DNA of 64,000 nt from Candidatus Zixiibacteriota bacterium (lineage in GTDB: Bacteria > Zixibacteria > MSB-5A5 > GN15 > FEB-12), in NCBI GenBank assembly GCA_029860345.1, contig JAOUBJ010000011.1, positions 64,303-128,302 of the forward strand, read 5' to 3'. The notes beneath the pieces were generated by a model that was given only the letters and a program-made list of their open reading frames with translations, made no database searches and was not told the origin of the DNA. Of this stretch, positions 9,999-58,111 are shown one piece after another; within the stretch, counting starts at the first letter, position 1; each line of letters begins with the position of its first letter. The translations under genes and the position numbers were made by a program.

Positions 9999-10262
9999 TT
10001 TGGTGTTCTTGGGTAGACGCGAAGGGCGAGAAACACGGCTTGACCGTGCTGTTCAAAAAGTAACTCCGATCAAAACTTGAACAATCGGCCAATCGATTGA
10101 ATCAATGTTGGTTACCGGAAATCCGGCTGGGATAGCATCTTTTGTCACCATAAGACATGCCATAACGTCTACCGAGGACTCCCTGTACTCACAGATCAAG
10201 CCGCCGGGTCCCTTGACCTTAGCAAAACTGTGCAAAGAGGCCTCTTTGGGAACGGTTTTTGT

Positions 10263-10291
10263 TTGTTTGGGGGCGGTTAAGATAGTATAAA
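10263..10291 (+). promoter_or_regulatory. candidate sigma70-type promoter for the 1172-aa gene
   Basis: TTGTTT (10263-10268), 17-nt spacer, TATAAA (10286-10291). A purine-rich 'AGGAAGAGGA' precedes the ATG at 10374. Confidence 0.3.
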
Positions 10292-10373
10292 GTCAGGCAG
10301 AGTGCCGATACTTAGGGTTTAAGGGGCACTCGTGCGGAGCGCCTCAAGAGGCGAATTAGGAAGAGGATAATCG

Positions 10374-23167: not shown

Positions 23168-23694
23168 GTAGGGTGGGTCCGTCTTCGGACCCGCCATTGT
23201 CATCAGCAGATGTGGACATCTGCCAGTCACTGAGACTGTCGGCGGAGACAAGCCCCGCCGCTACGCGATAGAGCGCGAGGACGTACACCAGGCACGAAGA
23301 TGGATTCCCGCCTGCGCGGGAATGACACATGCGGCGCGGGGGTGACAGAGAGGCGGGCGTTGACCACCCTTCGACTCCGGGCAGGGTGAGATCTGAATGG
23401 GTTCGTAGACGGCCACCTCATGGTGAGCGGAGTCGAACCATGAACCTCTGGAATCTTATCCGAAGAGAATCCCGCGAGGCGCGGGATGTCGAAACCACAA
23501 CGGGTTTCGACCTACTGCCTGAAAAGGACAAGAACGAGTCCATTTTGCGGTGCAGGTCAAATGGGCCAATTTCCTTCCTCAAAGTCCCCTCTCGAGAGGG
23601 GATTTAGGGGTGTGTTATTCTACTTTTGGCAGACTAGGACGTCTGCCGCCCACAGAAAGAGAAGATGGATGCCGGATCAAGTCCGGCATGACAG
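23168..23694. repeat. mosaic array of short palindromic repeat units (array R3), between convergent genes
   Basis: GTAGGGTGGGTCCGTCTTCGGACCCGCC at 23168-23203. CAGCAGATGTGGACATCTGCC at 23204-23226. GAAGATGGATTCCCGCCTGCGCGGGAATGAC at 23297-23327. CACCCTTCGACTCCGGGCAGGGTG at 23361-23390. GGTGAGCGGAGTCGAACC at 23419-23444. TCCCCTCTCGAGAGGGGA at about 23586-23603. GAAGATGGATGCCGGATCAAGTCCGGCATGAC at 23661-23694. Confidence 0.9.
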
Positions 23695-29945: not shown

Positions 29946-30160
29946 GTCACTCCCGCGAAGGCGAGAATCCATCTGCCCAAGCTGGCGATCAAAACCGAAG
30001 ATGGACCCCCGCCTGCGCGGGGGTGACAGATAAGCTTCAACAACGCGCGAAGCGCAAAAAAAACGGGCTTGCCCGCCGCCCCAAACAAGGTTTGAGGCGG
30101 CCACCCAGAGATTGGAAACTCTTTAACAAGTGTCATTCTGGCGAAGGCCAGAATCCAGTC
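29946..30160. repeat. mosaic array of short palindromic repeat units (array R4)
   Basis: GTCACTCCCGCGAAGGCGAGAATCCATCT at 29946-29975 and its inverted partner at 29998-30030. GCGCGAAGCGCAAAAAAAACGGGCTTGCCC at 30045-30075. CCCCAAACAAGGTTTGAGGCGGCCACCC at 30079-30106. GTCATTCTGGCGAAGGCCAGAATCCAGTC at 30132-30160. Confidence 0.9.
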
Positions 30161-42248: not shown

Positions 42249-42432
42249 ACAACGTTGCGCGGGGTCCTTCTCGCCGCAGGCGGGTGAGACCCTGCGCGCG
42301 GAGGACCAGTTGGGTCACACTCCGCCACGGCGGACCAGGACCCAGCTGAATAGAGCGCCAGGGCAAACGACGACATCTGCCGCCCACGGCACATCAATTG
42401 ACAATCGCGGCCCATAGCCGTTTCTTCCCACA

Positions 42433-43710
42433 ATGGAAGCTGTCAAACTGCTCGCTCTGTTCGTTCTGATTGTCATCGCGCTCAGGTTCAAACTCTCGGT
42501 AGGCATTACACTGATCATCGCCGGACTGGCCACGGCGCTATTGTACGCGATACCCATCGGTCAATTGGCCGAAGGTTATTGGCAACTGGTGCAGTCGCCC
42601 AAGTTCATTTTCCTGACCTCGGTGGTGCTGTTGATCACGCTCATGGGATCACTTTTGAAAGAAGTTGGATACCTCGACAAACTCTCGTCGGCCGTTCAAG
42701 GATTGCACGGTGGGCAACGCACCGGTGCGATGGTCCTGCCGCCGTTGATCGGATTGATGCCGATGCCGGGCGGGTCGCTTTTGTCGGCGCCGCTGGTCGA
42801 CCGCGTGTTGAATGATCGGCGATACAAACCGGAGTTTCGCACCGTGACGAATTACTGGTTCAGGCATATCGCCGAGTTTGCCTGGCCGCTCTATCCGGGC
42901 ATTGTGTTGTCCGAAGCGATCACCGGTCTGCCGATTGGCGATGTAGCCTTGCTGCAACTTCCGCTGACCATCATGATGGCCATCATAGGTATCTTCTTCT
43001 TCATACGCACGATCCAACCGAGCGCCGCTAACTCGCACGGCACAGGCACGGCACTGATCGGAATTATCGGCGCGCTCTGGCCGATTGCATTGGTCATTCT
43101 CATTTACGGCATCGCCCGGATCGAACTGGCCTGGGCGTTGCTGATCTCGATTGCTGTCATGCTGATGGTGACGAGGCCTAAACGCGCGAACCTGTGGCGG
43201 GCAACCAAAGAAGGTTTGTCGTACAAACTCATCCTGCTGGTTTTTGGCGCGCTGTCATTTCAGACAACTCTTGAGTTGTCAGGTGCGATTGAGGCTATAC
43301 CGAGACTCTCCGCCGGGTACAATCTGCCCCCGGAACTGATCATCTTCCTCGTTTGTTTCGCAGCCGGCATTCTCACCGGGATGGTGGCCGCCTATGTCGC
43401 AATCGGCTACACAATCCTGGCCGGGTTGCTGTATCAGCACGGCATTGAGCCGGGCTATATCATGCTGGCTTACTTGTCCGGCTACTTTGGCATGATGCTC
43501 TCCCCGGCCCATTTGTGCCTGGTGCTCACCAACGAGTATTTCAAAGCCGACTTATCACTGGTTTACCGCCGCCTCGCCCCACCGCTGACCCTTTTGCTTC
43601 TGGGCGGCCTTCTGCTCTACTTTTCCGGATGGCCGGAGTTGTTCGGCGATGAATCGCTTTCTCGCGCTTCGCGCCTTTGTATCCTCACCCTGAGCGGAGT
43701 CGATGGGTGA
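42433..43710 (+). CDS. DUF401-family polytopic membrane protein (putative transporter)
   Basis: 425 aa with more than 10 TM segments. Family recalled from overall pattern, not searched. The last ~20 codons and the stop are encoded by repeat units (43650-43710). Confidence 0.55.
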   Translation: MEAVKLLALFVLIVIALRFKLSVGITLIIAGLATALLYAIPIGQLAEGYWQLVQSPKFIFLTSVVLLITLMGSLLKEVGYLDKLSSAVQGLHGGQRTGAMVLPPLIGLMPMPGGSLLSAPLVDRVLNDRRYKPEFRTVTNYWFRHIAEFAWPLYPGIVLSEAITGLPIGDVALLQLPLTIMMAIIGIFFFIRTIQPSAANSHGTGTALIGIIGALWPIALVILIYGIARIELAWALLISIAVMLMVTRPKRANLWRATKEGLSYKLILLVFGALSFQTTLELSGAIEAIPRLSAGYNLPPELIIFLVCFAAGILTGMVAAYVAIGYTILAGLLYQHGIEPGYIMLAYLSGYFGMMLSPAHLCLVLTNEYFKADLSLVYRRLAPPLTLLLLGGLLLYFSGWPELFGDESLSRASRLCILTLSGVDG

Positions 43711-43757
43711 ATCTACCGTGATGCGACCCGTCCCAAACAAGGCTTGAGACGTCCACC
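43650..43757. repeat. three repeat units spanning the 3' end of the DUF401 gene (array R7)
   Basis: GAATCGCTTTCTCGCGCTTCGCGCC at 43650-43675. TCACCCTGAGCGGAGTCGATGGGTGA at 43685-43710, which contains the stop. CCCAAACAAGGCTTGAGACGTCCACC at 43732-43757. Confidence 0.85.
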
Positions 43758-43766
43758 TGTCGAGAT

Positions 43767-44408
43767 TCAAATCAAGAAGGTCAAGTACAGACCCAAACTC
43801 TCACCGTCGATCTTCACCGGGGAATCACCAAAACCGTATTCGATCTTCGTAATTCGTCCACTGACACAGAAGCTTTGGTTCCACACATAGCCGATTTCCC
43901 CAAAATAGCCCAGCGCGTTGTCAAACTCAAATGTCAGATTATCGAAATCTTCATCAAAGGTCGGATTCATGTGATAGGTAAGACCGGCGCCCAGGCGAAG
44001 CTTGTCGCGTTGGTAGAAGAGCGAACCTTCCAATGGATGCCGTGAGAACTTGGAATCCAGATCATCAACATCAGCGGTCCGGTCAACCAACCATCCCAGG
44101 GTCAATTGAAGCCTGAGTGGTGTCTTTTTGATTCGGAAGGCTGCACCCAGATAAATATGAGCCCTTCCCCCGGCGGTAACGCTTGCGCTGCCTTCAGTAT
44201 ACCCCGGGACTCCCTGAGTATAGATGTAGGTGCGGTATTTAGCCAGTTTATCGCCACCAGTGGTCAGAGCCCCTCCGAGCACGATTTCGAATGAGCGCGT
44301 CTTTTTTGCGTGAGCGTCCTCAGCACAAGGAGCTAAGGTGGCGGTGGCTATGATAAGAAAGTAGACTACGATGACGATGGCTCTCTTTTGCATGAAGCGA
44401 CCTTTCAA
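43767..44408 (-). CDS. small outer-membrane beta-barrel protein (OmpW/porin-family-like)
   Basis: Signal peptide 'IVIVVYFLIIATATLAPCAEDAHA'. About 8 amphipathic beta-strand segments. Alternative start at 44393. Confidence 0.55.
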   Translation of the reverse strand: MKGRFMQKRAIVIVVYFLIIATATLAPCAEDAHAKKTRSFEIVLGGALTTGGDKLAKYRTYIYTQGVPGYTEGSASVTAGGRAHIYLGAAFRIKKTPLRLQLTLGWLVDRTADVDDLDSKFSRHPLEGSLFYQRDKLRLGAGLTYHMNPTFDEDFDNLTFEFDNALGYFGEIGYVWNQSFCVSGRITKIEYGFGDSPVKIDGESLGLYLTFLI

Positions 44409-44590
44409 GTTCTGCTATGTCGGGCATGACCAATATAGCACGCTGCAATCTCTTGTCCTCGTACCCCGCTGCAGGGGTTGAATGCAATATAGGGAATGGT
44501 TCACGTCGGGGCAAAGTCTTCCTGTCATGGGTAGTGCAAGGATTATTGTGTAAATTGGGGATTGGGGTTTGGTTTGAGTTTTCTAAGTGA

Positions 44591-44619
44591 TTGACAAAGA
44601 CGACAACAATGGCTATATT
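44591..44619 (+). promoter_or_regulatory. candidate sigma70-type promoter
   Basis: TTGACA (44591-44596), 17-nt spacer, TATATT (44614-44619), about 110 nt upstream of the ATG at 44732. Confidence 0.45.
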
Positions 44620-44731
44620 AACCCAGTCCCGCATCTGCACACAATGCGGAATCTATGACAGGCAATTGAATAGTACTAGCATGCTAACGCATTGGACTTA
44701 AGTACCATCAACCCTCTTGTAAGGAGAGTGA

Positions 44732-46060
44732 ATGTCTAAACCTTGTGACCTCACCATGGTCCCATCCCCGTTTGGACCAATTCTTCCCCGCAAACTTGCC
44801 CCACTGATTGTCCTGCTGATGTTGTTCACCGGCGGGGCGCGATCTGCCGGCGAACAGGCTGTTCCATTCAACGCTACCGAGGACCAGCTTGCCGGCGACT
44901 CGGAGGAGGCTCAGACAACAGTGCACAATGTCAACCAGCCGCCGGAGTTGTCGCCGCTCTCAAACGTCACTGTCGACGAACTCGCCACCGTTTCATTTGC
45001 TGTGGCCGCGACCGACAGCGACGGCCCCCCACCGCTATTGACCAGCTCCGCCCTTCCGGGCAGCGCCACCTTCGATGATCTCGACGGAGACGGCATCTAC
45101 ACTTTTGAGTGGATCACCACCTACGATGATTCCGGCTCCTACGATGTCACCTTTTACGCCACCGACGCCGACTTCCCAGCCGATGTCGACTCGGCCGAGG
45201 TAATCATCACGGTGAATGACGTCAACCGAACACCGTGGCTGCTAGCCCTGCCAAACCAACCGGATTCGGTCATGGAGCTTGACACAGTGCATTTTTCGAT
45301 CCTGGCCTGGGACGATGACGGTTCTATCCCCTATATCACGCTCGAAGTCAACGGCACCGGCGGCATGCTGCCCAACATGGAATTCGATCTAACCTGGGAC
45401 GGTACGTTCCAAAACGGTCTGCTGACCTTTATCCCCGACTACAGTCAGGGTGACGACAGGCCGACCTTTGTGTGGATGAGATTCTATGTATTCGATGAGT
45501 TTGATGTTAACCTTACGGACACCTCGGGAACTCAGACGATTAGGGTATATAACCGCAACCAGCCACCTGTGATAGACCCTGTGGCACCCCAGACGATTGC
45601 AGCCGGTCAGTTGTTTCATTTTGCCATATCGGCGACCGATCCTGACAATGATTCTTTATCCCTTACCCTGGATAACATGACCGCGGAGGCTGTCTTTGTG
45701 GACAGGGGTTGCGGCGCTGGTAGTTTTGAGTGGGTTCCGAATCCAAGCGACACCGGTCTGCATACTCCTTGGTTCCTTGCCTCTGACGGCATTATGGTAG
45801 ATACCATGGTTGTTGAGATCACGGTTCAGTACAATGGCTGCTGTATCGGAATCCGCGGTAACGTCGACGACGATGGTGGCGATACTATCGACATTTCTGA
45901 CTTGGTCTACCTGGTGGACTTTATGTTCATCGGTGGACCGGCGCCGCCTTGTTTTGTGGAGACCGATATGAACGCCAGTGGTATGCACGATATTTCTGAT
46001 CTTGTGTACCTGGTTGATTTCATGTTCAGTGGAGGTCCAACTCCGGTGGCTTGTCCGTAG
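44732..46060 (+). CDS. secreted protein with cadherin/Ig-like repeats and two C-terminal dockerin-like repeats
   Basis: Repeated 'NQPP(E/V)...V(A/T)..(F)..ATD(S/P)D' segments ('VNQPPELSPLSNVTVDELATVSFAVAATDSDG', 'NRNQPPVIDPVAPQTIAAGQLFHFAISATDPDNDSL'). C-terminus carries two copies of 'DISDLVYLVDFMF(I/S)GGP(A/T)P'. Confidence 0.65.
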   Translation: MSKPCDLTMVPSPFGPILPRKLAPLIVLLMLFTGGARSAGEQAVPFNATEDQLAGDSEEAQTTVHNVNQPPELSPLSNVTVDELATVSFAVAATDSDGPPPLLTSSALPGSATFDDLDGDGIYTFEWITTYDDSGSYDVTFYATDADFPADVDSAEVIITVNDVNRTPWLLALPNQPDSVMELDTVHFSILAWDDDGSIPYITLEVNGTGGMLPNMEFDLTWDGTFQNGLLTFIPDYSQGDDRPTFVWMRFYVFDEFDVNLTDTSGTQTIRVYNRNQPPVIDPVAPQTIAAGQLFHFAISATDPDNDSLSLTLDNMTAEAVFVDRGCGAGSFEWVPNPSDTGLHTPWFLASDGIMVDTMVVEITVQYNGCCIGIRGNVDDDGGDTIDISDLVYLVDFMFIGGPAPPCFVETDMNASGMHDISDLVYLVDFMFSGGPTPVACP

Positions 46061-46079
46061 GGGTCGGCAAAACCGAAAA

Positions 46080-46179
46080 CTGGATTCTGGCCTTCGCCAG
46101 AATGACAGATAGATGTGCTCGTGCTTCGACTGCGCTCAGCATGACATGATTCTGTGGGCGGCAGACGTCCTCGTCTGCC
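46080..46179. repeat. short repeat cluster (array R8)
   Basis: CTGGATTCTGGCCTTCGCCAGAATGACAG at 46080-46108. CTTCGACTGCGCTCAGCATGACATGA at 46124-46149. GGCAGACGTCCTCGTCTGCC hairpin at 46160-46179. Confidence 0.85.
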
Positions 46180-46624
46180 CCTGGTTTGTGCCCGTGTGAT
46201 CTTCAGATCGCGCGGGAGGGCACTACGGCAAAATGGGTTCGTTTGTGCCCTTTTCAAGTTTGCATAATAGGACTTGTAGCGATTCTGAGCGTTTTTCCAT
46301 TCGACGCGCACCTCTATCAATTCTATTCTTATCAATATCTGTGTTCATTGGATAGGTCCTTTTACCAACCAGTGTGCACAGGTATCTTGGTGGGTGTTGG
46401 TAGGGTATTTGTGGGGGGTTGCCGGGGTTTCTGGTTGTCATTGTGGATCGTTTGAGTTACATTGTGCAAAGTCAGGGTCCCTGTTGTTCGACCTTGAGAT
46501 CTGGAGGCGAATCTAGGACACTTGGCTGGAACAATAGAAGTGTCTTAGCCCAGTAAATATCAAAGGAACGATTACGGACAGTTGGTGGGACTTAGGTGAA
46601 CACAGTGGTTTTCGTGGCGGCAAG

Positions 46625-47254
46625 TTGGCTTTGTACCAAATCACCTGCCCACTTTCCATGGAAAGAAACAACTTCAAACTGGCATTTCACGCGGAGAAGA
46701 AGAAAGCCAATTCACAGAAGAAACTGAACTTTGACACCCTAGAGTGTGGCAATTGTACCGCATATGTTCTGGTATTCTGGTCTGCCAGCGAGACTGCCTT
46801 TGACGGAGTTCACGATTATCGGGTTCTGCCTTGGCCACTCAAATATGAGAAGTATCCTGAACACTGGCCAGATGAGGTCGGACGATTCTGGCTCCAGGCC
46901 AAGAGGAGTATTGGCGATGAGAATTGGGACGCTGCCGCTGTTATGGCAAGAAGCGCGCTGCAAATCGTATTGAGGGGTCACGGAGCTAGCGGAGCTAACC
47001 TTAAGCAAGAGATTGAAGATTTAGCCAACAAGGGGGCCTTGCCACCGATTATGAAGGACTGGTCCGAACACGTACGAGACCTCGGTAATGAGTCCGCTCA
47101 TCCGAAACCAGACGGTCCGCTCACGAGTCCTCAGGATGCCAAAGACATTGTGAGTTTTCTAGATTACCTTCTTGAGTACTTGTATACGTTGCCTCATCGT
47201 ATAAAAATGTACAGAGAGCGGTCGGGTCATGAAGTTAACAAAGAGCCACGATGA
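46625..47254 (+). CDS. DUF4145-domain protein (HEPN-like superfamily, as I recall it)
   Basis: 'AAAVMARSALQIVLRGHGA...LKQEIEDLANKGALPPIMKDWSEHVRDLGNESAHP...AKDIVSFLDYLLEYLY' matches the DUF4145 pattern (R..GN..AH). TTG start at 46625, alternative ATG at 46658. AT-richer than the flanks by eye. Confidence 0.65.
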   Translation: MALYQITCPLSMERNNFKLAFHAEKKKANSQKKLNFDTLECGNCTAYVLVFWSASETAFDGVHDYRVLPWPLKYEKYPEHWPDEVGRFWLQAKRSIGDENWDAAAVMARSALQIVLRGHGASGANLKQEIEDLANKGALPPIMKDWSEHVRDLGNESAHPKPDGPLTSPQDAKDIVSFLDYLLEYLYTLPHRIKMYRERSGHEVNKEPR

Positions 47255-47376
47255 CCAAGTGGGCTTAATCCAGTAGTGTGTCCGCACAGGGGTCTTGTCG
47301 AAATCCGCCTCAGGCGATCCTCTCGGACGAGGGGTCTCACATGGTGGGGACCGATGTCAAAAAAGTCACATTTTGA

Positions 47377-47404
47377 TTGCACTTTACCGATATGATAGTA
47401 TAAT
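47377..47404 (+). promoter_or_regulatory. candidate sigma70-type promoter
   Basis: TTGCAC (47377-47382), 16-nt spacer, TATAAT (47399-47404). Confidence 0.4.
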
Positions 47405-47420
47405 GAGTGTATCTATTACC

Positions 47421-47478
47421 CCATCCGCTTCGGCGGTGGGTGCGGGGTCGACCCGAAAGGGCGACCCCTGTGTTTTTG
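47421..47478 (+). other. two tetraloop hairpins plus a U-tract (structured leader, attenuator or small RNA candidate)
   Basis: Hairpin 1 at 47421-47439: CCATCCGC-TTCG-GCGGTGG. Hairpin 2 at 47444-47468: GGGGTCGACCC-GAAA-GGGCGACCCC, followed by TGTGTTTTTGT. It ends 1 nt before the NYN ATG. Confidence 0.4.
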
Positions 47479-47479
47479 T

Positions 47480-48127
47480 ATGACAAGTCAGCAAGTCATT
47501 GTATACATAGACGGGTTTAACCTGTATTACGGTGCGGTCAAAGGAACGCCGTTTCGCTGGCTTAATGTCGATGCGCTTTGCAGGCAGCTCTTAAGACCCA
47601 CTGACAAACTGAATGCGATCAAGTACTATACTGCTCTGGTTAGTGCTCGGCCAAATGATCCGCAGGCACCAAACAGACAGCAGATGTATCTGAGGGCTCT
47701 TGAGACAATCCCTCATCTCTCGATATACTACGGTCACTTCCTCTCACATGCGGTGCGAATGAGGACTGTTTCGAGCTTACAACCGGGACAGACAGCGCAG
47801 TATATCGAGGTGATGAAGACTGAAGAAAAGGGCTCGGACGTCAACCTAGCCACACACTTGATTCATGACGCTCATCTAAACAGATTTACTCTGGCTATCG
47901 TAATATCCAACGATTCTGACCTGATTGAACCGATTCGGATTATCCGCTAGGAGCTGGGAAAACAGGTCGGTGTTTTTAATCCACAGAAACAAAGAAACCC
48001 CAGTGTAGAACTCATGAGGAACGCTGATTTTGTTAAGAACATTCGGACGGGAGTTTTGCGACTCTGCCAATTTCCCGAAGTACTAACTGACTCGGTAGGT
48101 TCGTTCCATAAGCCGTCGGCTTGGTAA
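47480..48127 (+). pseudogene. NYN-domain (LabA/PIN-like) ribonuclease gene interrupted by an in-frame TAG at 47948-47950
   Basis: 'VIVYIDGFNLYYG' and 'EKGSDVNLATHLIHDAHLNRFTLAIVISNDSDLIEPIR' are NYN acidic motifs. My translation past the TAG in the same frame gives 'ELGKQVGVFNPQKQRNPSVELMRNADFVKNIRTGVLRLCQFPEVLTDSVGSFHKPSAW*'. This looks like the normal C-terminus of this family. Confidence 0.7.
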
Positions 48128-48246
48128 TCCAACGCCGTAAGACGCTGCCCCGCAATCACTTAACATTTATCTTGCGCTGAGAAATCCTGGAACTAAATTG
48201 TAGTTGTCGGGTACTAAGAGATAAGAACCGATCAAAGAAGGTATAG

Positions 48247-48852
48247 ATGGCAAAGAAAACCGAAAAAGAAATCGACTTTGAACTGATCAGAGCAATCCAG
48301 AACGGCGATATGGTAGCCTTCAACGGTATGGTCGAGCGGTACAAAGACCGCTTGATGAATGTCATCGGGCGCATGCTGTCATCAACTGAAGAAGCCGAAG
48401 ATATCGTTCAGGAAACCTTTATCAGAGTCTATCAGCACCGTCAATCGTTCAATTTCCAGCACTGTTTCTCAACCTGGATTTATACGATTGCGCTGAACTT
48501 AGCCCGCAACGAACTGCGCAAACGCAAGAAATTCAAGTTCCTGGACATTTTCGACATGCAAGGCTCCGAAGCCGAATTTGCCGTCGATCCGGAACTGCCC
48601 AGTCGATTGCCACAGGTTTTGGAAGCAGCCGTAAAAGCGCTACCGGAAAAGTACCGGACAGCTTTCCTGCTCAGAGATGTTCAGGAAATGTCTTATGAAG
48701 AAGTGGCCAAGATTCTTGGTGTCCCCCTGGGCACCGTTAAGTCGCGGGTCAACCGGGCTCGCATGATACTCAGAGAAAAACTTCAACCCAGAATGGAGGA
48801 ATACAATGCGTTGTCGAAAGGTACGCTCCTTCCTGTCAGCTTATTGTCGTGA
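48247..48852 (+). CDS. ECF-subfamily RNA polymerase sigma-70 factor
   Basis: Region 2 'AEDIVQETFIRVYQH' and region 4 'AFLLRDVQEMSYEEVAKILGVPLGTVKSRVNRAR'. Confidence 0.85.
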   Translation: MAKKTEKEIDFELIRAIQNGDMVAFNGMVERYKDRLMNVIGRMLSSTEEAEDIVQETFIRVYQHRQSFNFQHCFSTWIYTIALNLARNELRKRKKFKFLDIFDMQGSEAEFAVDPELPSRLPQVLEAAVKALPEKYRTAFLLRDVQEMSYEEVAKILGVPLGTVKSRVNRARMILREKLQPRMEEYNALSKGTLLPVSLLS

Positions 48853-49501
48853 CGAACTGGAAGGTCGTCAGCGGCGTCAGGTGAGCGATCATCTTTTGGC
48901 TTGCCGCAGTTGTCGCACTCAGGAAACGTTTTATAGTAGCCTGAGCACGGCGTCGACTGAGATATCCTCCCTGAAAGTCTCGAACGATTTCAACCAGAAG
49001 CTTTTGCAGCGGGTAGCCAAGGAACGGTTCGCCGAGACCCGCACCAAAGCCTTCCTGGCCCGGGAAGCACCGCTGGTTATGTGGCGCAAGGTAGTGCCTG
49101 TGGCCGCTACTGCCTGTGTTGCCGTACTTGCCTTTATTGCCACCATGTCTCCGGTTTTTGACTCCGGCACACCCGAGTATGCCAACATCAACAACCAGAC
49201 CGGTGAAGATTACATGACGGTGCAACCGACAGCCAACCCGAACCTGGCTGTCCAGCTCAAGGATGACTGGTCGCTTGAAAACCAATTGGCCAAGGCGGAG
49301 CGGTTTCACCGTATCAGCAATAGTGTGATCCCGGCGTCCGGTTTCACGCAGCCGGGGTACTCAGGCGGGTTGAACAGTCTCACCTCCTCCGGTAAACGTC
49401 CGGCTCCGTTTGTGGCCAATTACTTTCGAGTACGTCCGGTGGTGAGGATCTATGTAGTTCCTCAGCCATCGACCGTTAAGGAGGGCTCGCACGCTTACTA
49501 A
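48806..49501 (+). CDS. anti-sigma factor (zf-HC2 type) with one TM segment
   Basis: 'HLLACRSCR' is the H-x3-C-x2-C motif. TM 'VVPVAATACVAVLAFIATM'. GGAGGA Shine-Dalgarno 5 nt upstream of the ATG. Overlaps the end of the sigma gene. Confidence 0.75.
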   Translation: MRCRKVRSFLSAYCRDELEGRQRRQVSDHLLACRSCRTQETFYSSLSTASTEISSLKVSNDFNQKLLQRVAKERFAETRTKAFLAREAPLVMWRKVVPVAATACVAVLAFIATMSPVFDSGTPEYANINNQTGEDYMTVQPTANPNLAVQLKDDWSLENQLAKAERFHRISNSVIPASGFTQPGYSGGLNSLTSSGKRPAPFVANYFRVRPVVRIYVVPQPSTVKEGSHAY

Positions 49502-49502
49502 C

Positions 49503-50687
49503 TTGATAAAGTTGTTACCTCTAACCGCCGGACGGACCGTTGTGTGTCTTCTGGCGGTCTTTTTTGCCGGGTCCTCCCATGCCGCCGACAGCTCCCTGGT
49601 CTCGCTGGAGAGCAGCCTGAGTGATCTGATCAGAGACATATCTCGTTCAGTAGTGACAGTCGAGAGTTCCCGATCGGTCCCCGGAGATATGCTTGAAGGG
49701 GCGGCCGATGAAGCTGTGCACCGCCTGATTTCGTCCGGAACGATAATCGACAGCGCCGGACATATCCTGGTAGCGGCATCGACGGTGGCCGGGTATGATC
49801 GGATTTTAGTCAATTTCGAAGATCAACAACTGCCGGCGCGATTGGTAGGTATCGACTACCACACCGGGCTGGCCCTATTGTCCCTGGATAGGCCGATAGG
49901 AGAACCGTCGAGGTTCACCGACCGTCATACCTGTGTCGGCCAAATGGTCGTGGCCGTCGGCAACGCCTATGGTTTGCACGCCTGCGCTACGCTCGGCTTC
50001 TGCGCCGGTTCGCGACCTGACGGTTCTATGCAATTCTCGGCGGCAATAACACCCGGCACGGTCGGAGGTGGCGTGTTTGATTTGAGAGGACGTCTGCTGG
50101 GTGTGGTGATCGGCGGATTCGGTCAGGGAAGGCTCTCCGAAACCGGGCTGGCTGTCCCGGCTCACCAACTTCCCTCCACCGTCTACGAACTTCTCACCGG
50201 CGGCGATCGACGGGCCGGCTATATCGGTATCACCACAGCTGATATCGAGATTTCACCGGGGATCGCTTTGTCGGCACCCTACCAACTGGCCTCATCCGGG
50301 GCTCATCGGCAAGTGATCGTAGACAGAGGCACAATCGTCACGCAAGTAGTGGGGAAGTCACCGGCCGCCGCTTCGGGCTTGCGCAAAGGGGACCTGTTGT
50401 TCTCTATCGACAAAACGCCGATCAACTCTGCTTTTGAACTCATGGATCGGGTTAGGCTCTGTCCGCCGGGCGGTGCTATCGAACTGGGTTTCATCCGGCA
50501 TCAGCGGGCTTACTATGTCAAGTTGAACGTCGGACAACGCGAACTGGCGACAGTGGGGGATTTCGCCGTTGGCCGTCAGGTCGACGCTACCAATGGACTG
50601 AGCCGAGAAGAACTCTACCGTGAAGTTCAACGCTTGAAACGTTCCATGATGCTGCTTGAAAAGCAGTTGGAGCGCCTCGGACCGTAA
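49503..50687 (+). CDS. HtrA/DegS-like trypsin-fold + PDZ protein lacking the catalytic triad (pseudoprotease)
   Basis: Aligns by eye to DegP: 'SSGTIIDSAGHILVAASTV' (His to Ser), 'DYHTGLALLSL' (Asp to Gly), 'ITPGTVGGGVFDLRGRLLGVV' (GNSGG Ser to Val). PDZ region 'GKSPAAASGLRKGDLLFSID'. Signal peptide present. Confidence 0.7.
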   Translation: MIKLLPLTAGRTVVCLLAVFFAGSSHAADSSLVSLESSLSDLIRDISRSVVTVESSRSVPGDMLEGAADEAVHRLISSGTIIDSAGHILVAASTVAGYDRILVNFEDQQLPARLVGIDYHTGLALLSLDRPIGEPSRFTDRHTCVGQMVVAVGNAYGLHACATLGFCAGSRPDGSMQFSAAITPGTVGGGVFDLRGRLLGVVIGGFGQGRLSETGLAVPAHQLPSTVYELLTGGDRRAGYIGITTADIEISPGIALSAPYQLASSGAHRQVIVDRGTIVTQVVGKSPAAASGLRKGDLLFSIDKTPINSAFELMDRVRLCPPGGAIELGFIRHQRAYYVKLNVGQRELATVGDFAVGRQVDATNGLSREELYREVQRLKRSMMLLEKQLERLGP

Positions 50688-50730
50688 TTCAATATTGCCA
50701 TACGACTCTCCCTTGACTAACTTACAAGGG

Positions 50731-51402
50731 ATGAATAATACCGTTTATCCGGAGAAGTTTCTTAGCTGGGCAGCTTCGTTTCGTACCGGGGAGGATGCTG
50801 TCTCAAGATCGCTGGCCGGATACGCCGCAGCCATCGCCTTGGCCGATGAGCCGTGCCTTGATAGGGCCGTGCGGTTGGGCCGGGATCACTCGGTCGGCCA
50901 CAGTGGATTCTATGAGATTGTTTTGCAGTCGTACCTCTTTCTCGGTTTCCCCCGAATGCTGCTGGCTGCCGAACACCTGGCCGGCTGCTTTTCAGACGTT
51001 TGCATGCCCCCGCAAACCAAAGCGGTGACTACAGACGAGTCCCACCGCTGGTACCAAAACGGCATGGCCCTATGTGAGCGTGTCTATGGCGACTCCTTTG
51101 AACCACTACGAGAGCATGTCGAATCGGTAGCTCCTGAGGTCTTCCGCTGGATGATAGTAGAGGGCTACGGCAAGGTGCTCTCCCGCCCCGGCCTGACCGC
51201 TGTGGATCGTGAACTGGCCGTGGTAGCCAGTTTGCTTATCGACAACAGGCCGCGTCAACTGCACTCACACCTGAAAGGGGCATCAAATGTGGGAGCCGAT
51301 ACCGATCTGATTCGTAGAATTATTGAAGACCACAAAGAGACCGCCCCGACCGGATACCGGACAGCGGTATCAATGCTGGACAGGATTAACGGCTCATGCT
51401 GA
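50731..51402 (+). CDS. carboxymuconolactone decarboxylase (CMD/AhpD-like) family protein
   Basis: 'LTAVDRELAVVASLLIDNRPRQLHSHLKGASNVGADTDLIRRIIE' fits the CMD-family helix pattern. ATG at 50731 preferred to the overlapping start at 50656. Confidence 0.55.
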   Translation: MNNTVYPEKFLSWAASFRTGEDAVSRSLAGYAAAIALADEPCLDRAVRLGRDHSVGHSGFYEIVLQSYLFLGFPRMLLAAEHLAGCFSDVCMPPQTKAVTTDESHRWYQNGMALCERVYGDSFEPLREHVESVAPEVFRWMIVEGYGKVLSRPGLTAVDRELAVVASLLIDNRPRQLHSHLKGASNVGADTDLIRRIIEDHKETAPTGYRTAVSMLDRINGSC

Positions 51403-54400
51403 AACGCCTCGCACAGATTTCCGTCATCCTCCTTGCCCTGGGCATTGTCTGCGTGGCTGGTATTCTGATCTATCTATTTGCATTGGACGGCCTGGAATCT
51501 ATTATCAATAGTCGTTTGTCGGCGATGGTGGATGACAGGTATCACCTGGAGGCTCGTGTCGGCGAGGTATCCGGGGACATCTGGAGCGGGATCGTTCTTG
51601 ATAATGTCGAAGTCCGATATGTCGATTCGCTCCGTAGCTACTTGATGGCCGACATTCCCCGCGTCACCACCGGATATGCAATATCCAACCTATGGAATCG
51701 CAATTTTCTCCTGAAATACTTGTTTGTCGATTCAGCCAGGGTCACATTGGTTCGCGACAGCCTGGGCGACTGGCTGCTCCCCCAGGTGCCGGTGTCATCG
51801 GACTCCAGTCAGGTTTCATCGCCGGATTTCGCTGTGGAGATGTTGAGTCTGAACGATGCATCGCTGAGGATTATAGATAAGAACGATACTCTTGAGGTCG
51901 AACGGATCAATCTGGTGCTGGAGTTGAAGTCCTCGGGTGGCACTTACGGCGTCAAGGTCAATCAGTTTGAGTTCGGATCGGATGACTCGCTGTTACATCT
52001 CGATGCCTTCAGCGGCAAGTTGACATACGGTGGCGGGCAACTCATGTTCGAGAACCTGCTGCTGCAATCCGATAAGACCCATCTGAAACTCAACGGTAAT
52101 CTCACCACCGCCGATCCTATCTCAGCCTTGATCGATTTCGACATCAACAATGCCGATCTGGAGAAGTTATCTTCGTTCACCAAACGACGCCTGAAGGGTG
52201 TTCTTGATCTCAACGGACAGGTGCGACTGAAGAACGGCGGTGTCAGCGGAAGTGTCAATCTCGGCGGAGAACTCAGACCGGCCTCGTTTGAGAATCTCCA
52301 TGCCGACTTTCGCTATCGGGACAAGCGACTGTACTTCGACAGCCTCTATGGGACCATACTTGGAACATGCAGCGTGGACGGCTCAGGCGAGATCGATTTT
52401 TCGGTCAGCCCGCAGCAATATCGTCTGACAGCCGACATCCGGGACTTCAACCTCAAAGAACTGGTTAAGAACGCCTACCTTTCGTCATTGAACGGTCGGA
52501 TCGATTTACGGGGCGAATCGTTTCGCAAAGAAGAACTCATTCTCCGGATAGAGACCGAACTGTTTGATTCGGAATTTCACGAGTACCATTTCCACCGGGC
52601 CGACGGAGAACTGGTTGTCACACGAGACTCGCTTGTATTTGGACAGGGATTTCAGTTCGACTACTTTGAAAACAGACTGGAACTGGCCGGACGGGTGGAG
52701 TACAAAGATAGTATCGACCTGAAGGTTGAAGCCGACCTACCCAATCTCGAACGGTATCAGGGCAAGCTATTCATCGCCCGGCCAGCCGGACGGGCGCAGG
52801 CAAAAGCAACCTTGCGCGGCCGGACCGCCGATCCTGATTTGCAGGGCAGCTTCGAATCCGATTCCCTGTGGCTGTACGGTTTTTTCAGTCGTGACTTTCT
52901 GGCCGATTTCGATATTGGAGAATTCCTGCACGGTCGCGACGGCTTTGTCGAAGTTCATAGTTACGACGGCGAGTCCTACAGCTTGCCTTACGATACATGC
53001 TACGGCCATCTAAGCCTGGATTCTCAGCAAGTGGAGCTTGATAGCGTTTACCTTCACAACAGTTATTCTTCGATCACCACCGGTGGGCATCTTGACTATG
53101 GTGACTATCCGATGAGACTCGACCTGGATACGTTGTCCCTTCAAGTGTTCGAAGTGGCCTACCACAACCGGCTGGCTCTGCAGATTGGAATCGATTCAAC
53201 CGGTTTTGAGTTTCGCCAAACGGCCATCGCCGACAGCGGTTCGGTAATAGCCGTTCGTGGGTACGCCGGTTATGATGAGTCACTGCAACTGACAGTGTTC
53301 GCCGAGGAGGTCCCAGCCGGTCCCTGGATAAGCCTGTTCGATGAAGAACTGCCCTTCGAGGGACGCCTGTCGTGCGAAGTGGAGGTCGGCGGGAATCTCA
53401 ATCGACCACAGTTGGACCTCCGGGCCACCATGGATTCACTCATTTATCGCCAACTGGTCCTGGGCGATCTGGCCGTGGACGCACAGTACCGAAACGGCCG
53501 GCTGGACATCGACAGTATAACGATTCTATCCAACCCCGGCAGGTACCGGGCCGATGGATATCTGCACATGAATCTCGCCTTTACATCAGAAGCGACAGAA
53601 CGCTTCCCGGACCGACCGATGGATATACATTTCACGGCCACCGACAGTCGGTTCGATCTGGTAAGCCTGATGCTGCCCTCGGTGGAGCAACTCGACGGCG
53701 ACTTTGCGGCCGACTTCAGTTTGTCCGGAACGCCCGATGCGCCCAATCTGGAGGGTGAAGCATTCCTTACCGCAGCCAGTCTGAAGTATTTTGATCTTGA
53801 AGACACTCTGTATACGGATTCTGCAGGTGTCACCATGCATAACGATGTAATCGCGATTGAGTTGATTGAGGCTCATGGGCCTGATGATGATCAACCGGTC
53901 TTTCTCAACGGCGAGATACAGGTCAAGTCGCTGGACAACCTGTATTACGATGTTGATGTGTCCATCCCCAAACCGTTCCCGCTCTCCTACGAACTGGACG
54001 ACATAACCGGCAAGGCCAAAGCGCTGTTACATGTCGGTGGCGATAGTCCGCCCAGGGTGACCGGGAATGTGGAGTTGGTATCTATGAAGTACCTGGTCAA
54101 TTTTGCCGAGGAGAGCGAAGGTTCACCTATCATGGCGGCGCTGGCCATGGAAAACAGTTGGGACCTGGATTTGAACATCGACATTCCTTCCAATTACTGG
54201 ATCAAGAACGAGGACATCGATGCCGAGCTGTCCGGCCAGCTCAATCTGGTTCGTGACAACGGTGTTTATCGGTTCATTGGGGAAATGGAGTTTGTACGCG
54301 GCAGCGGTTTCCTCTTTGACAAAAAACTCCATATTGATCAAGGTAGTAAGGTCATTTTCGAAGGCAACGAAGAACTCAATCCACAACTGGATATCGTCGG

Positions 54401-54923
54401 TCGAACGCGAATCATGGGTGAAAGCCAATCCCCCATCGACGGCGAGGAAGCGACGCGTGAGGAAATCGAACTGTGCGTTCAGGTCATCGGGACACTGGAC
54501 ACGCCGGAGATCAATCCGTGTGCCGAATCCCAACTCACGCGCGAGGAGATTATCCCTCTGTTAGTCGCCAACTACTACACTTCTGATTCGGTGACGGCAA
54601 CGGGCAGGCTGGAGCAAAGTATTTCGGGGCTGGTCGGCACCGAGATTTCAAAGATCGGTAGCCGCAGCCTGAACAGGCTGGGTGTGGAAACTTTTGTGAT
54701 CGATCCATACTACCAAGGCCAGTTCGATCCCTTGAAAGCGCGCGTAACAGTCGGCTTCTACACTGCACGAAATCTGTACGTCTACGGCAGTTCGGCGCTG
54801 TCATTTGAGTCTTTGCAGGAAGTCGGGTTCGATTATCGTTTTAACAAGAACATGCTTCTTGAAGGTCGTTCCGATGAAGACTTGCTCTATCGTCTGGCTC
54901 TCAAACTTCATTGGGAATTCTGA
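51396..54923 (+). CDS. tamB: translocation and assembly module protein TamB (DUF490/AsmA-like)
   Basis: 1175 aa. N-terminal signal anchor 'ISVILLALGIVCVAGILIYLF'. Long beta-rich repeats. C-terminal DUF490-like end '...GFDYRFNKNMLLEGRSDEDLLYRLALKLHWEF'. Adjacent to an Omp85 gene. Confidence 0.8.
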   Translation: MLKRLAQISVILLALGIVCVAGILIYLFALDGLESIINSRLSAMVDDRYHLEARVGEVSGDIWSGIVLDNVEVRYVDSLRSYLMADIPRVTTGYAISNLWNRNFLLKYLFVDSARVTLVRDSLGDWLLPQVPVSSDSSQVSSPDFAVEMLSLNDASLRIIDKNDTLEVERINLVLELKSSGGTYGVKVNQFEFGSDDSLLHLDAFSGKLTYGGGQLMFENLLLQSDKTHLKLNGNLTTADPISALIDFDINNADLEKLSSFTKRRLKGVLDLNGQVRLKNGGVSGSVNLGGELRPASFENLHADFRYRDKRLYFDSLYGTILGTCSVDGSGEIDFSVSPQQYRLTADIRDFNLKELVKNAYLSSLNGRIDLRGESFRKEELILRIETELFDSEFHEYHFHRADGELVVTRDSLVFGQGFQFDYFENRLELAGRVEYKDSIDLKVEADLPNLERYQGKLFIARPAGRAQAKATLRGRTADPDLQGSFESDSLWLYGFFSRDFLADFDIGEFLHGRDGFVEVHSYDGESYSLPYDTCYGHLSLDSQQVELDSVYLHNSYSSITTGGHLDYGDYPMRLDLDTLSLQVFEVAYHNRLALQIGIDSTGFEFRQTAIADSGSVIAVRGYAGYDESLQLTVFAEEVPAGPWISLFDEELPFEGRLSCEVEVGGNLNRPQLDLRATMDSLIYRQLVLGDLAVDAQYRNGRLDIDSITILSNPGRYRADGYLHMNLAFTSEATERFPDRPMDIHFTATDSRFDLVSLMLPSVEQLDGDFAADFSLSGTPDAPNLEGEAFLTAASLKYFDLEDTLYTDSAGVTMHNDVIAIELIEAHGPDDDQPVFLNGEIQVKSLDNLYYDVDVSIPKPFPLSYELDDITGKAKALLHVGGDSPPRVTGNVELVSMKYLVNFAEESEGSPIMAALAMENSWDLDLNIDIPSNYWIKNEDIDAELSGQLNLVRDNGVYRFIGEMEFVRGSGFLFDKKLHIDQGSKVIFEGNEELNPQLDIVGRTRIMGESQSPIDGEEATREEIELCVQVIGTLDTPEINPCAESQLTREEIIPLLVANYYTSDSVTATGRLEQSISGLVGTEISKIGSRSLNRLGVETFVIDPYYQGQFDPLKARVTVGFYTARNLYVYGSSALSFESLQEVGFDYRFNKNMLLEGRSDEDLLYRLALKLHWEF

Positions 54924-56848
54924 TGATGAGAAAGCTGGTACTGTTCTTCATACTGGCCGCATCCTCCGCACTTGCCCAGTCGGACACCAGGGACGAGAGG
55001 CTATGGCTGCGTTGGATGCGTGACAAACCTGCCATCAGCGCGATCACGGTCGAAGGCAACCAGTACTTTTCAGATAGTGAAATCAAGAAACGCATGTACT
55101 CGCGCACCCGTTCCCTGTGGGGCACATTAAAGGGGGACCGCCGGACTCGTCTTCAACGCGAATCAATCGGTCGCGACACGCTGGAGATAAAGTACCTGTA
55201 CTTTACCAATGGATACTTAGGCGTCCAGGTGGAAGAATCTGTCGACAGAGACCCGGTGGACTCATCCGCACATCTCAAAGTCGGAATATCCGAAGGCCGT
55301 CGCTGCTTCTATGGTGTCAAGTCGTTTTCCGGCGAGTACGACCGGGACCTGCATGTCGGTCTTTATAAGATCGGTGAACGTCTCAAGCCGGGGAAACCGA
55401 TAAACCTGTTTGAACTGCGCCGAGCAGCCTTTGACATGAAGACGATCTTCGCCAACAACGGCTACCCCTACGCCAAGGTCGACTTTGTGCTGGATTCCAG
55501 TTCATCGGACGGCTCCTATCCGGTGCTCTTTCAGATTGACGGTGACGAGTTGGTTACGTTCGGCGCCGTGACACCGGTCGGCACTAAACGATATCCGGCC
55601 TACACGGTCAGGAGAGAGTCGCGGATTAAACCCGGCGCTCTTTACCGCCGTCGGGATATTATCGATACGCGCATCCGGCTGTTGGAGGCAGGATACTTCA
55701 GCACTGCATCGATCGTGATGAGCGAAAACTCTACGGACAGTCTCAAACCGGAGATGGAACTGCGTGTCCGCGAACGTAAACCGATGTTCTTCACCTTCAA
55801 GACCGGCGCCGGGCAGTCGCACATACGTGATATCGAATGGGATGTGTCATCGACCTTTGGCGGCCGAAACCTGTTTGGATCGCGTCATTACGATTTGTCG
55901 GCCGGGCTGAAGTTCGGCGTCGATAACGGCGTCAACCTGCTTGAACATGTATACCGTGTTCGCCTCACCGAACCCTGGCTTCTGGGCACGCGCATGCCGC
56001 TGACCCTTTCAGCCGTTTGGGAACCAGGCGTGAAAGACCCGGAGCAAAACTACCGGATAGAGTCCTGGTCGCTGGCTATGTCTTCGATCAAGAAATTCAC
56101 GAGAGAGACGCGGGCCTCGGCCGGAATCGAGTATGAGTCGGTAAGGATTTTTGGAGTTCCGGACAATGAAGTACAGTTCTTGAAAGATGAACAGGGAATC
56201 GTGGTTCGTCGCAACATCTATCTGGCTCTTCGTCGGGACAGTCGTGATCACATCTTCATCCCGCGCCGAGGATCCCTCACCGATGTGCGAGCGGAGTTCT
56301 ATGGCGGCTTTCTGGGCGGCGATAACCATTTCACCAAGCTCGAGGCCAGTTGGTCCAGTTTCCAGGTGGTCTGGCCGGGATGGATCTCAGCCACTCGGAT
56401 CAAGTCAGGCTGGACGCAGCAGTTCAGTCCGTCAAAGGAAGTGCCGATCATAGATCGATTCTATCTCGGCGGCGCCAACAGTATTCGCGGTTTCAAAGTC
56501 AACTCGCTGGGACCAACGCTTGCAGACGGCACTTTAGAGAAAGCTAATTTCATCGCCCTGTTCAACCAGGAGTTTCGCTGGCATACTTTCCAACTCTTCC
56601 AATTCATCCCCGGTCTGAAAGGGTGGCTTGGCGCCTGGCCTTTGTGGCAGTCGATCTTTTTCGACATGGGCAACGGCTATCGCAAACCAGAGGAGATTTC
56701 CTGGCGGAGCCTCGCCTACAGCTACGGCACTGGCATTCAGATCGTCTCGCCGGCCGGACCGATCAGGGTCGACTATGCACGACGGATCAAGACTCGGACG
56801 ATAGATTTTGACTATCGTTGGCATTTTAGTATATTGTATGCTTTCTAG
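54923..56848 (+). CDS. Omp85-family outer-membrane protein (TamA/BamA-like, short POTRA region)
   Basis: Signal peptide 'LVLFFILAASSALAQ'. POTRA-like 'ISAITVEGNQYFSDSEIKK'. Barrel motifs 'RFYLGGANSIRGF'. Terminal '...WHFSILYAF'. The ATG at 54923 overlaps the tamB TGA. Confidence 0.8.
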   Translation: MMRKLVLFFILAASSALAQSDTRDERLWLRWMRDKPAISAITVEGNQYFSDSEIKKRMYSRTRSLWGTLKGDRRTRLQRESIGRDTLEIKYLYFTNGYLGVQVEESVDRDPVDSSAHLKVGISEGRRCFYGVKSFSGEYDRDLHVGLYKIGERLKPGKPINLFELRRAAFDMKTIFANNGYPYAKVDFVLDSSSSDGSYPVLFQIDGDELVTFGAVTPVGTKRYPAYTVRRESRIKPGALYRRRDIIDTRIRLLEAGYFSTASIVMSENSTDSLKPEMELRVRERKPMFFTFKTGAGQSHIRDIEWDVSSTFGGRNLFGSRHYDLSAGLKFGVDNGVNLLEHVYRVRLTEPWLLGTRMPLTLSAVWEPGVKDPEQNYRIESWSLAMSSIKKFTRETRASAGIEYESVRIFGVPDNEVQFLKDEQGIVVRRNIYLALRRDSRDHIFIPRRGSLTDVRAEFYGGFLGGDNHFTKLEASWSSFQVVWPGWISATRIKSGWTQQFSPSKEVPIIDRFYLGGANSIRGFKVNSLGPTLADGTLEKANFIALFNQEFRWHTFQLFQFIPGLKGWLGAWPLWQSIFFDMGNGYRKPEEISWRSLAYSYGTGIQIVSPAGPIRVDYARRIKTRTIDFDYRWHFSILYAF

Positions 56849-56941
56849 CGAAGGTGGCCAAGGCGCCTTCATGGGCCAATGAAAACAACTCTTTTACTGT
56901 TCACAACGTAACAGTTGAAGATGAAATTAGTCTGAGAGAAC

Positions 56942-58111
56942 ATGGAACCAATATATCTCGATCACAACGCCACGACGCCGGTGGACCAGGCCGTAGTAGA
57001 GGCCATGCTGCCATTCCTGAACGAAGATTTCGGCAACGCCAGTTCCGCTCACTCGTTTGGTCGTGACGCCAAGGTTGCCCTGGAACAAGCCAGGGAGATG
57101 ATCGCCGGGATTATCAACTGTCAACCGAACGAATTGTACTTCACCTCAGGCGGTACCGAATCCGACAACATCGCCGTGCTTGGAACGGCCTATCAGTATC
57201 CAAAAAGGAAGCATGTCGTTGTGGGGTCCACCGAGCACCATGCCGTGTTTGAGCCGGCCGAATACCTGCACCATCACGACGGCTACGATCTGGATTTCCT
57301 GCCGGTCGATGTCGAAGGCTTTGCCTCGGCGGAGCAACTAAGCGAATTAGTAAGGGACAACACGGCCATCGTATCGGTGATGCATGCCAACAACGAAACC
57401 GGCGCCATACAAGAGTTGTCCACGCTAACCGAAGTGACTCGGGCGCGCGATATACTGTTTCACACCGATGCAGTGCAGTCTATCGGCAAGATCGTGGTTG
57501 ACGTCAAAACGCTCGGCGTGGATCTGATGTCCCTGACCGGGCACAAGATTTATGGACCCAAGGGGACGGGGGCTTTGTTCGTGCGGCAGGGTGTCAAGAT
57601 TGCTCCTTTGTTCTACGGCGGCGCTCACGAGAAAAAACGGCGACCCGGCACCGAGAACGTCGCCGGCGCGGTCGGGCTGGCCAGGGCGCTCGAAGTAGCC
57701 GAGAAACAGCGTGAAGATGATTTCATACGGCTGTCCAAACTGGCCGATGAGTTTATCGACCGGGTGACTGAGACTATTCCCAATAGTTTTGTCAACAGCC
57801 CGCGCAAACGTCGCATTCCACAGACGGTCAACATGTCTTTCCCCGGCGCTGAGGGAGAGTCGATCATACTCAGTCTTGACCTGAAAGGGATCGCGGCCTC
57901 GTCCGGCTCGGCCTGTACTTCCGGCGCCACCGAACCTTCGCATGTACTGACGGCGATGGGCATACCGCTTGAGCGTGGACAGGCGGCCGTTCGTTTTTCA
58001 CTCGGCCGCGCCACCACCGCTCGGCACCTGGATTATGTCGTCGAGGTGCTTCCCCCGATCATTGAACGGCTGCGCGCCATGTCGCCCACCTACCGACAAA
58101 CTCAGGCTTAG
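56942..58111 (+). CDS. nifS: cysteine desulfurase (NifS/IscS class V aminotransferase)
   Basis: 'MEPIYLDHNATTP', PLP-lysine 'SLTGHKIYGPKG' and active-site 'SSGSACTSG'. Confidence 0.9.
   Translation: MEPIYLDHNATTPVDQAVVEAMLPFLNEDFGNASSAHSFGRDAKVALEQAREMIAGIINCQPNELYFTSGGTESDNIAVLGTAYQYPKRKHVVVGSTEHHAVFEPAEYLHHHDGYDLDFLPVDVEGFASAEQLSELVRDNTAIVSVMHANNETGAIQELSTLTEVTRARDILFHTDAVQSIGKIVVDVKTLGVDLMSLTGHKIYGPKGTGALFVRQGVKIAPLFYGGAHEKKRRPGTENVAGAVGLARALEVAEKQREDDFIRLSKLADEFIDRVTETIPNSFVNSPRKRRIPQTVNMSFPGAEGESIILSLDLKGIAASSGSACTSGATEPSHVLTAMGIPLERGQAAVRFSLGRATTARHLDYVVEVLPPIIERLRAMSPTYRQTQA

Follow-up and report, generated by a model that had tools for sequence, protein, structure and literature searches.

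A small structured RNA of about 65 nt was found beside an NYN ribonuclease (RNase) gene in a 64,000-nucleotide stretch of a Candidatus Zixiibacteriota genome (contig JAOUBJ010000011.1), which is referred to here as the window. Both lie in an AT-rich islet (46190-48240), together with a gene of the DUF4145 family, and the initial annotation had proposed this islet as a two-gene RNA-targeting defense or toxin module of a new kind. The islet proved to be an unremarkable accessory insert in decay, carrying members of known or candidate defense families, and the proposed pairing is refuted: the two genes are unrelated, self-contained single-gene RNase cassettes that are neighbors by co-location only. 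The new and useful part is the RNA, which is apparently undescribed so far and whose linkage to NYN genes is widespread, extending over at least 15 phyla, plasmids, prophages, and several orientations. The reading as a whole, namely an insert of about 2 kb with two unrelated, inactivated RNase cassettes, of which the NYN one would have a trans-acting RNA partner, is given a probability of about 75%. The main features of the islet are as follows.

47373-47404, plus strand: promoter-like element of the NYN/RNA unit, with a TTG-containing -35 region and TATAAT at 47399-47404 (from conservation)
47412-47478, plus strand: small structured two-hairpin RNA of about 65 nt beside the NYN gene (from the covariance model R1)
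47480-48128, plus strand: HEC-09-type NYN RNase gene with one nonsense codon (from translation, PADLOC, and alignment)
46574-47254, plus strand: RAZR/PD-T7-4-like gene with a zinc ribbon and a DUF4145/HEPN RNase domain, probably a pseudogene (from Pfam, PADLOC, and alignment)

The RNA lies in the spacer between the two protein genes (47255-47479) and was absent from the initial annotation. It includes a P1 hairpin with a UUCG loop (about 47419-47441) and a GC-rich P2 hairpin (about 47442-47472), and the U-tract after P2 forms an intrinsic terminator that abuts the ATG of the NYN gene. Across four independent loci that differ in their flanks and encode proteins of 78-80% identity, the approximately 110 nt before the NYN ATG are near-invariant and the promoter element at 47373-47404 is conserved; a generic promoter scan of the window did not score this copy of the element. 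The same plan was observed family-wide, with a sigma-70-like promoter followed by AUAUCCCCCC, P1, one linker base, GCGAGG opening P2, CCUCUGC, and the U-tract, and the UUCG loop of P1 was present in 61 of 82 copies. The window RNA scored 66.6 bits against R1 over 47410-47483, the only match in the 64 kb, and its predicted fold has a minimum free energy of -34.7 kcal/mol (z = -3.7). It is intact, though the adjoining NYN gene is broken.

Covariation among the copies supported the structure. RNAalifold, applied to a MAFFT alignment of 38 copies, showed compensatory changes at 12 of 16 pairs. In the alignment fitted to the model, 94.2% of the cells were paired and compensatory changes occurred at 19 of 20 pairs, while the MAFFT-only alignment gave 92.9% and 15 of 20; these values were reached by none of 500 shuffles in either case, and slid controls were only 33-53% and 36-48% paired, respectively. 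G.U cells outnumbered A.C cells by 115 to 22, an excess that fits an RNA read from the annotated strand. A known RNA family was excluded, since Rfam 15 gave no family match at gathering or E-value thresholds in the window or in 11 canonical loci (only chance-level matches, E ~8) and no tRNA was found. Similarly, a literature search on NYN with small RNA or type III toxin-antitoxin systems found no description. A second, degenerate copy of the RNA at 47285-47350 (minus strand) or at 46183-46267 was also considered and rejected, as the unfiltered model gave at most 11 bits there.

R1 was searched against both strands of 84 sources (933 kb), where 82 matches were found. All of them adjoin an NYN gene, and none was located elsewhere. 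Of the NYN loci in viral contigs, 23 of 25 had a match, compared with none of 31 control loci. Altogether, the RNA was seen at loci L001-L088, L175-L202, and L207, next to nearly all HEC-09-type NYN genes, and the apparent exceptions were cut off by the end of a contig or gave weak, divergent matches with two hairpins at the expected place. Copies were present on Leptospira plasmids, on small E. coli plasmids, and in the Mycobacterium abscessus prophage prophiGD43A-1, in which the NYN locus lies between the integrase and the repressor. Two copies of the RNA occurred only at L081, L083, and L039; otherwise it is a single unit.

The orientation of the RNA relative to the NYN gene varied. Among the upstream copies, 58 shared the strand of the gene and 10 were on the opposite one; among the downstream copies, nine were convergent and one was on the strand of the gene. 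Sigma-70-like promoter hexamers were found at a fixed distance before the RNA in both orientations. Where the RNA is divergent from the NYN gene, the genes on its far side vary between loci, which excludes the RNA as the leader of a conserved minus-strand gene. Additionally, a pattern search identified copies of the RNA in viral contigs for which no NYN gene was present in the fetched DNA: strong ones at L203:1113-1185 (61 bits) and L205:651-724 (66 bits), and one of 32 bits at L206:347-404. The L205 copy is nearly identical to an Acidobacteriota copy in L034. These orphan copies could be decoys or remnants.

The NYN gene is found where the initial annotation had placed it, as an open reading frame (ORF) at 47480-47950 on the plus strand (156 aa), and the Pfam NYN domain assigned to it was confirmed with 29.9 bits against a cutoff of 24.2. 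The internal stop is likewise real: it is a TAG at 47948-47950, past which the frame runs on to a natural stop, TAA, at 48126-48128. With this stop codon read as X, the product matched the PADLOC profile HEC-09 over positions 2-202 of 203 (E=1.3e-44, 150.3 bits). HEC-09 (PDLC04163) is an Hma-embedded candidate NYN defense gene, for which protection was seen with none of the phages tried (Payne et al., bioRxiv 10.1101/2024.01.29.577857). An AlphaFold2 (AF2) model of an 80%-identical homolog (P0001; predicted local distance difference test, pLDDT, 89.4) matched 2qip (E=1.4e-8) and the NYN domain of MARF1, and the alignment showed residues D11, D120, D145, and D147 to be invariant. The window gene is thus a full-length match to the HEC-09 family, with a predicted NYN/PIN-like fold and conserved acidic residues. 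It resembles HEC-09 in the full-length profile match, in the MARF1- and 2qip-like fold, and in the acidic residues, whereas it is located outside any Hma system and is interrupted by the TAG; also, the published description of HEC-09 mentions no associated RNA.

In the closest homologs, the codon aligned with the TAG is AAG or TTG, and all invariant NYN residues are kept on both sides of the stop. The location of the TAG at a variable position, together with the retention of these residues, points to a recent event. Recoding or read-through of the TAG was rejected as unlikely, because TAG is an ordinary, frequent stop in the window, where it ends 13 of 38 long ORFs. None of 119 NYN homologs is shorter than 207 aa, so the 156-aa product of the window does not represent an intact ORF, and through the truncation the fold predicted by AF2 loses two core strands along with its C-terminal hairpin.

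The family to which this gene belongs is very large, with at least 7,945 significant matches among the 8,000 candidates scored. To our knowledge, bacterial NYN proteins (PF01936) have no established function. In PLSDB, HEC-09-type NYN genes were located on 446 plasmids, of which 207 are from Klebsiella, 57 from Xanthomonas, and 46 from Escherichia. Very small ColE1-like or cryptic plasmids, such as pKMi006_5 (NZ_CP091696.1, 3461 bp) and pRHB40-C03_3 (CP057030.1, 4612 bp), carry the NYN gene as their sole cargo.

The other gene of the islet, an ORF at 46625-47254 on the plus strand (209 aa), also stands as annotated. It matched Pfam DUF4145 (PF13643) with 56.8 bits over residues 99-179 (cutoff 23.1) and PADLOC PD-T7-4 with E=1.3e-10 over residues 19-194, and defense-type RNase-superfamily content, as had been suspected in the initial annotation, was thereby identified in both genes. 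PD-T7-4 is known in E. coli as RAZR, a ring-activated zinc-finger RNase composed of a Cys4 domain and a DUF4145/HEPN domain (Nature 2026, PMC13017515; PDB 9y9c), which assembles around phage portal or Gp77 rings, cleaves single-stranded RNA, and aborts infection, with R146 and H154 as catalytic residues (PMC13017515). A profile of the window protein and ten homologs (A2) matched the RAZR cryo-EM chain 9y9c with E=1.7e-6, in the HEPN region only. The catalytic Arg (47075-47077) and His (47099-47101) are kept, where VRDLGNESAHP aligns to cRivGNqavHP of 9y9c, and the motif RxxGNxxxHP was found in 116 of 119 DUF4145 homologs. On these matches, the gene is identified as a homolog of RAZR/PD-T7-4. 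Neither protein of the islet matched an NCBIfam name.

Both proteins, RAZR and that of the window, are each encoded by a single gene and combine an N-terminal CxxC...CxxC zinc ribbon with a C-terminal DUF4145/HEPN-like domain that has an R-x7-H motif (R151/H159 here, R146/H154 in RAZR). The window protein differs in belonging to a distant subfamily, with about 25-30% identity over the HEPN part and an extra conserved N-terminal segment, MDSWWQLGE.... In addition, the start codon and one zinc ligand are missing from the window copy. Homologs begin 17 codons upstream of the ORF with MDSWWQLGE, for which the window has TDSWWDLGE. The family ATG is an ACG here (46574-46576), no in-frame canonical start is located further upstream, and the first one available is the TTG at 46625. 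Nucleotide homology to relatives also begins at 46573-46576, and 111 of 119 homologs retain the N-terminal M..WW..GE. The degenerate Cys motif of the initial annotation (CPLS...CGNC) is present as well: the codon of the second zinc ligand is TCC (Ser) at 46655-46657, such that the first knuckle reads CPLS instead of CPFC, and the ribbon is left incomplete with C8, S11, C41, and C44. The replaced Cys was found in 118 of 118 full-length homologs, and the subfamily as a whole has the full Cys4. With the start codon lost, the copy is not an intact translatable ORF and is probably a pseudogene, as judged from its sequence.

By sequence, both protein genes appear to have been inactivated recently in this genome, in agreement with the decaying module suspected earlier. 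The islet is 100% identical in three independent assemblies, so the lesions of both genes are real and assembly error was ruled out as their source. Nevertheless, two readings that would leave the genes some function have to be weighed. One is that the cassettes are still functional, with the RAZR-like protein starting at TTG 46625 or ATG 46658 and the NYN protein made by read-through or active as a truncated enzyme. In its favor, the RAZR-like protein retains the catalytic Arg and His as well as all but one of the four Cys, the invariant NYN residues persist on either side of the TAG, and the islet is fixed and identical in several samples. Yet the lost N-terminal segment and the lost Cys are those kept in 111 of 119 and 118 of 118 homologs, TAG is a normal stop here, and the NYN truncation reaches into the core of the predicted fold and below the length of any homolog. 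We therefore regard functional cassettes as improbable.

The other reading is that of a single cooperative two-gene system, RNA-targeting defense or toxin-antitoxin, in which DUF4145 and NYN would act together. The two genes share a strand, lie 225 bp apart, and both encode RNase-superfamily proteins. However, a tblastn survey gave no co-occurrence in either direction. The NYN sample consisted of eight loci with 78-80% identical proteins and 80 species-representative genome loci from about 15 phyla, in which no DUF4145 homolog was found within about 6 kb of NYN (0/88). Similarly, an NYN homolog was found in none of 80 metagenome loci (374 kb) of the DUF4145 subfamily. The eight closest NYN loci had unrelated neighbors and varying contexts, and the homology of the islet to its relatives falls into two separate nucleotide blocks, 46573-47238 and 47370-48091. 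Furthermore, the NYN gene comes with a conserved promoter, RNA, and terminator of its own, and each gene matches a separate single-gene PADLOC family. Pairing as a system was thus ruled out, and a cooperative module of this kind is considered extremely improbable. No helicase or ATPase gene is present in the islet, as had been noted. The earlier statement that no described system corresponds to it is outdated gene by gene, given the characterized RAZR (PMC13017515) and the published candidate HEC-09 (bioRxiv 10.1101/2024.01.29.577857).

The islet itself is a horizontally acquired insert of about 2 kb, as its outlying composition and an empty site in the closest relative indicate, and the earlier proposal of horizontal acquisition is upheld. 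Its AT-richness, previously estimated by eye, was borne out when computed: the GC content at 46190-48240 is 0.484, compared with a mean of 0.550 for the window (standard deviation 0.020 among stretches of equal size). No other 2 kb of the window is poorer in GC (0.6th percentile), and the stretch is also the strongest tetranucleotide outlier, with a distance among the top 0.8%. The extracytoplasmic function (ECF) sigma gene beside the islet (48247-48852) has a GC content of 0.485, yet it is conserved and syntenic in relatives, so low GC alone is no marker of foreign DNA here. The extent and the left edge of the insert are given by two further features.

46065-48178, no strand: stretch without a counterpart in the closest relative, L172, by insertion or replacement (from blastn)
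46079-46180, no strand: native REP-like dispersed repeats with a hairpin at the left edge, outside the acquired cassettes (from copies elsewhere in the window)

In the blastn comparison, L172 aligned on both sides of the islet with 80-82% identity, its positions 1-877 to 45194-46064 of the window and its positions 1264-10766 to 48179-57687. The same flanks, an immunoglobulin (Ig)-domain gene and the sigma/anti-sigma/protease operon, are thus 386 bp apart in L172 and 2114 bp apart here. A more distant relative, L173 (about 70% DNA identity), is collinear with about 43650-48200 of the window and has a DUF5677 gene directly upstream of the ECF sigma operon (L173:4592-5389), whose protein had no match in a PADLOC search. 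With a different gene at the matching spot, the insertion spot appears to be a variable accessory site.

The repeat cluster reported beside the islet (46079-46180) is real and is made of short dispersed repeats. These recur at 14104-14335, 23628-23657, 30131-30159, and 42361-42387 of the window and form a dispersed intergenic family of short REP-like hairpin units, e.g. ...CCAGAATGACAGA. L172 has one unit of this stretch and another one inverted, and a terminator-like hairpin is located within the stretch at 46160-46179. The cluster is composed of native intergenic repeats. Around the insert, no terminal direct or inverted repeats beyond chance and no mobility genes were found, and a Pfam search of 46061-46573 and the other spacers for coding remnants gave nothing credible. 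An 11-nt sequence, AAAACCGAAAA, stands in exact direct repeat on either side of the insert, at 46069-46079 and 48256-48266; being A-rich and about as frequent as chance would give, it was not read as a target-site duplication. Further upstream, the 3' end of the Ig/cadherin-domain gene contains a 42-nt direct repeat (45905-45946 and 46004-46045, 74% identity), which encodes a doubled 'DISDLVYLVDFMF.GGP.P' segment and resembles a dockerin repeat pair.

Among known systems, the usual layout of the NYN loci, in which a promoter, a structured RNA, and an intrinsic terminator are followed by an endoribonuclease gene, resembles that of type III toxin-antitoxin and abortive-infection systems (ToxIN, CptIN, TenpIN), as does carriage on plasmids and prophages. 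The RNA and its terminator are directly upstream of the RNase gene in the window and in 58 of 82 family loci, with another orientation in 20. Type III toxins process their RNA from an array of tandem repeats, whereas the NYN RNA is a single two-hairpin unit. In further contrast, the nuclease has an NYN/PIN-like fold and is not of the ToxN, CptN, or TenpN type, and the RNA may be divergent from or convergent with the gene, while neutralization is only putative. Since both the repeat array and a ToxN-type toxin are missing, the NYN module is at most an analog of type III and not a member. Bacterial Rsr (Ro60) and its adjacent Y RNAs are another case of a small structured RNA gene linked, in variable orientation, to an RNA-binding protein partner, but their protein and RNA folds are unrelated to those of NYN and its RNA, and no sign of a ribonucleoprotein scaffold role was seen here.

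The insert thus lies in a Zixibacteria-like chromosome, between native REP-like repeats and the ECF-sigma/anti-sigma/protease operon. One cassette encodes a RAZR homolog whose zinc ribbon, by comparison with the characterized RAZR, would dock on phage rings such as the portal, with oligomerization around the ring activating the HEPN RNase. The other encodes a HEC-09-type NYN RNase behind its own promoter and an RNA of about 65 nt with two hairpins and an intrinsic terminator at its end. In the mechanism proposed for NYN cassettes that are intact, this RNA, abundant and terminated before the gene, would act in trans on the NYN protein, most likely as an inhibitor or pseudo-substrate that silences the RNase, comparable to type III toxin-antitoxin and abortive-infection modules, and read-through of the terminator would supply a small amount of NYN mRNA. 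We favor the RNA as a trans-acting partner that would bind the NYN RNase, most simply as an inhibitor, because of the type III-like layout, the carriage as sole cargo of plasmids and in accessory regions of prophages, and the linkage that is independent of orientation.

Alternatively, the RNA may act only in cis on the NYN gene, as a 5' leader, an attenuator, or a shared terminator, and the NYN protein may be a housekeeping enzyme of RNA processing. Such a leader would agree with the 58 of 82 loci where the RNA immediately precedes the start codon on the strand of the gene, and a housekeeping role with the absence of phage protection by HEC-09 and with the proposal that bacterial NYN proteins function in tRNA or rRNA processing (PMC5499597). 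However, the RNA cannot be a leader in 20 of 82 cases, where it has a promoter of its own and lies either downstream or on the other strand, and it also occurs as orphan copies in viral contigs. Furthermore, the NYN gene is the sole cargo of plasmids of 3.4-4.6 kb, is flanked by integrase and repressor in a prophage, and differs in genomic context between close homologs. This alternative is considered unlikely.

Several observations also weigh against a trans-acting RNA partner and two inactivated cassettes. The idea of the RNA as an inhibitor is drawn only from gene architecture and linkage, and the RNA is single-copy, unlike the processed tandem repeat of ToxIN. HEC-09 gave no protection against the phages tested, so a defense role of the NYN family is unproven, and strong orphan copies of the RNA were found without an NYN gene in viral contigs. 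As for inactivation, the 156-aa NYN fragment keeps acidic active-site residues, and translation from TTG 46625 or ATG 46658 could yield an N-terminally shortened RAZR-like protein with its catalytic Arg and His.

With a trans-acting RNA still preferred, it may tentatively be proposed that the RNA and the HEC-09-type NYN constitute a new, very widespread family of type III-like toxin-antitoxin or abortive-infection systems, with NYN as the toxin and a non-repetitive RNA and with a range of at least 15 bacterial phyla, prophages, and small enterobacterial plasmids, although we hold this possibility at clearly less than even odds. If it is true, the orphan RNA copies of viruses would be possible anti-defense decoys. 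For annotation, the covariance model R1 is usable for identifying the NYN-associated RNA in other genomes. Tractable hosts that carry the NYN gene together with the RNA are the small E. coli plasmids (3.4-4.6 kb) and prophiGD43A-1 of M. abscessus. A conserved and, by inference, independently transcribed RNA that is tied to NYN in every orientation leads to the testable hypothesis that NYN may be an RNA-regulated RNase.

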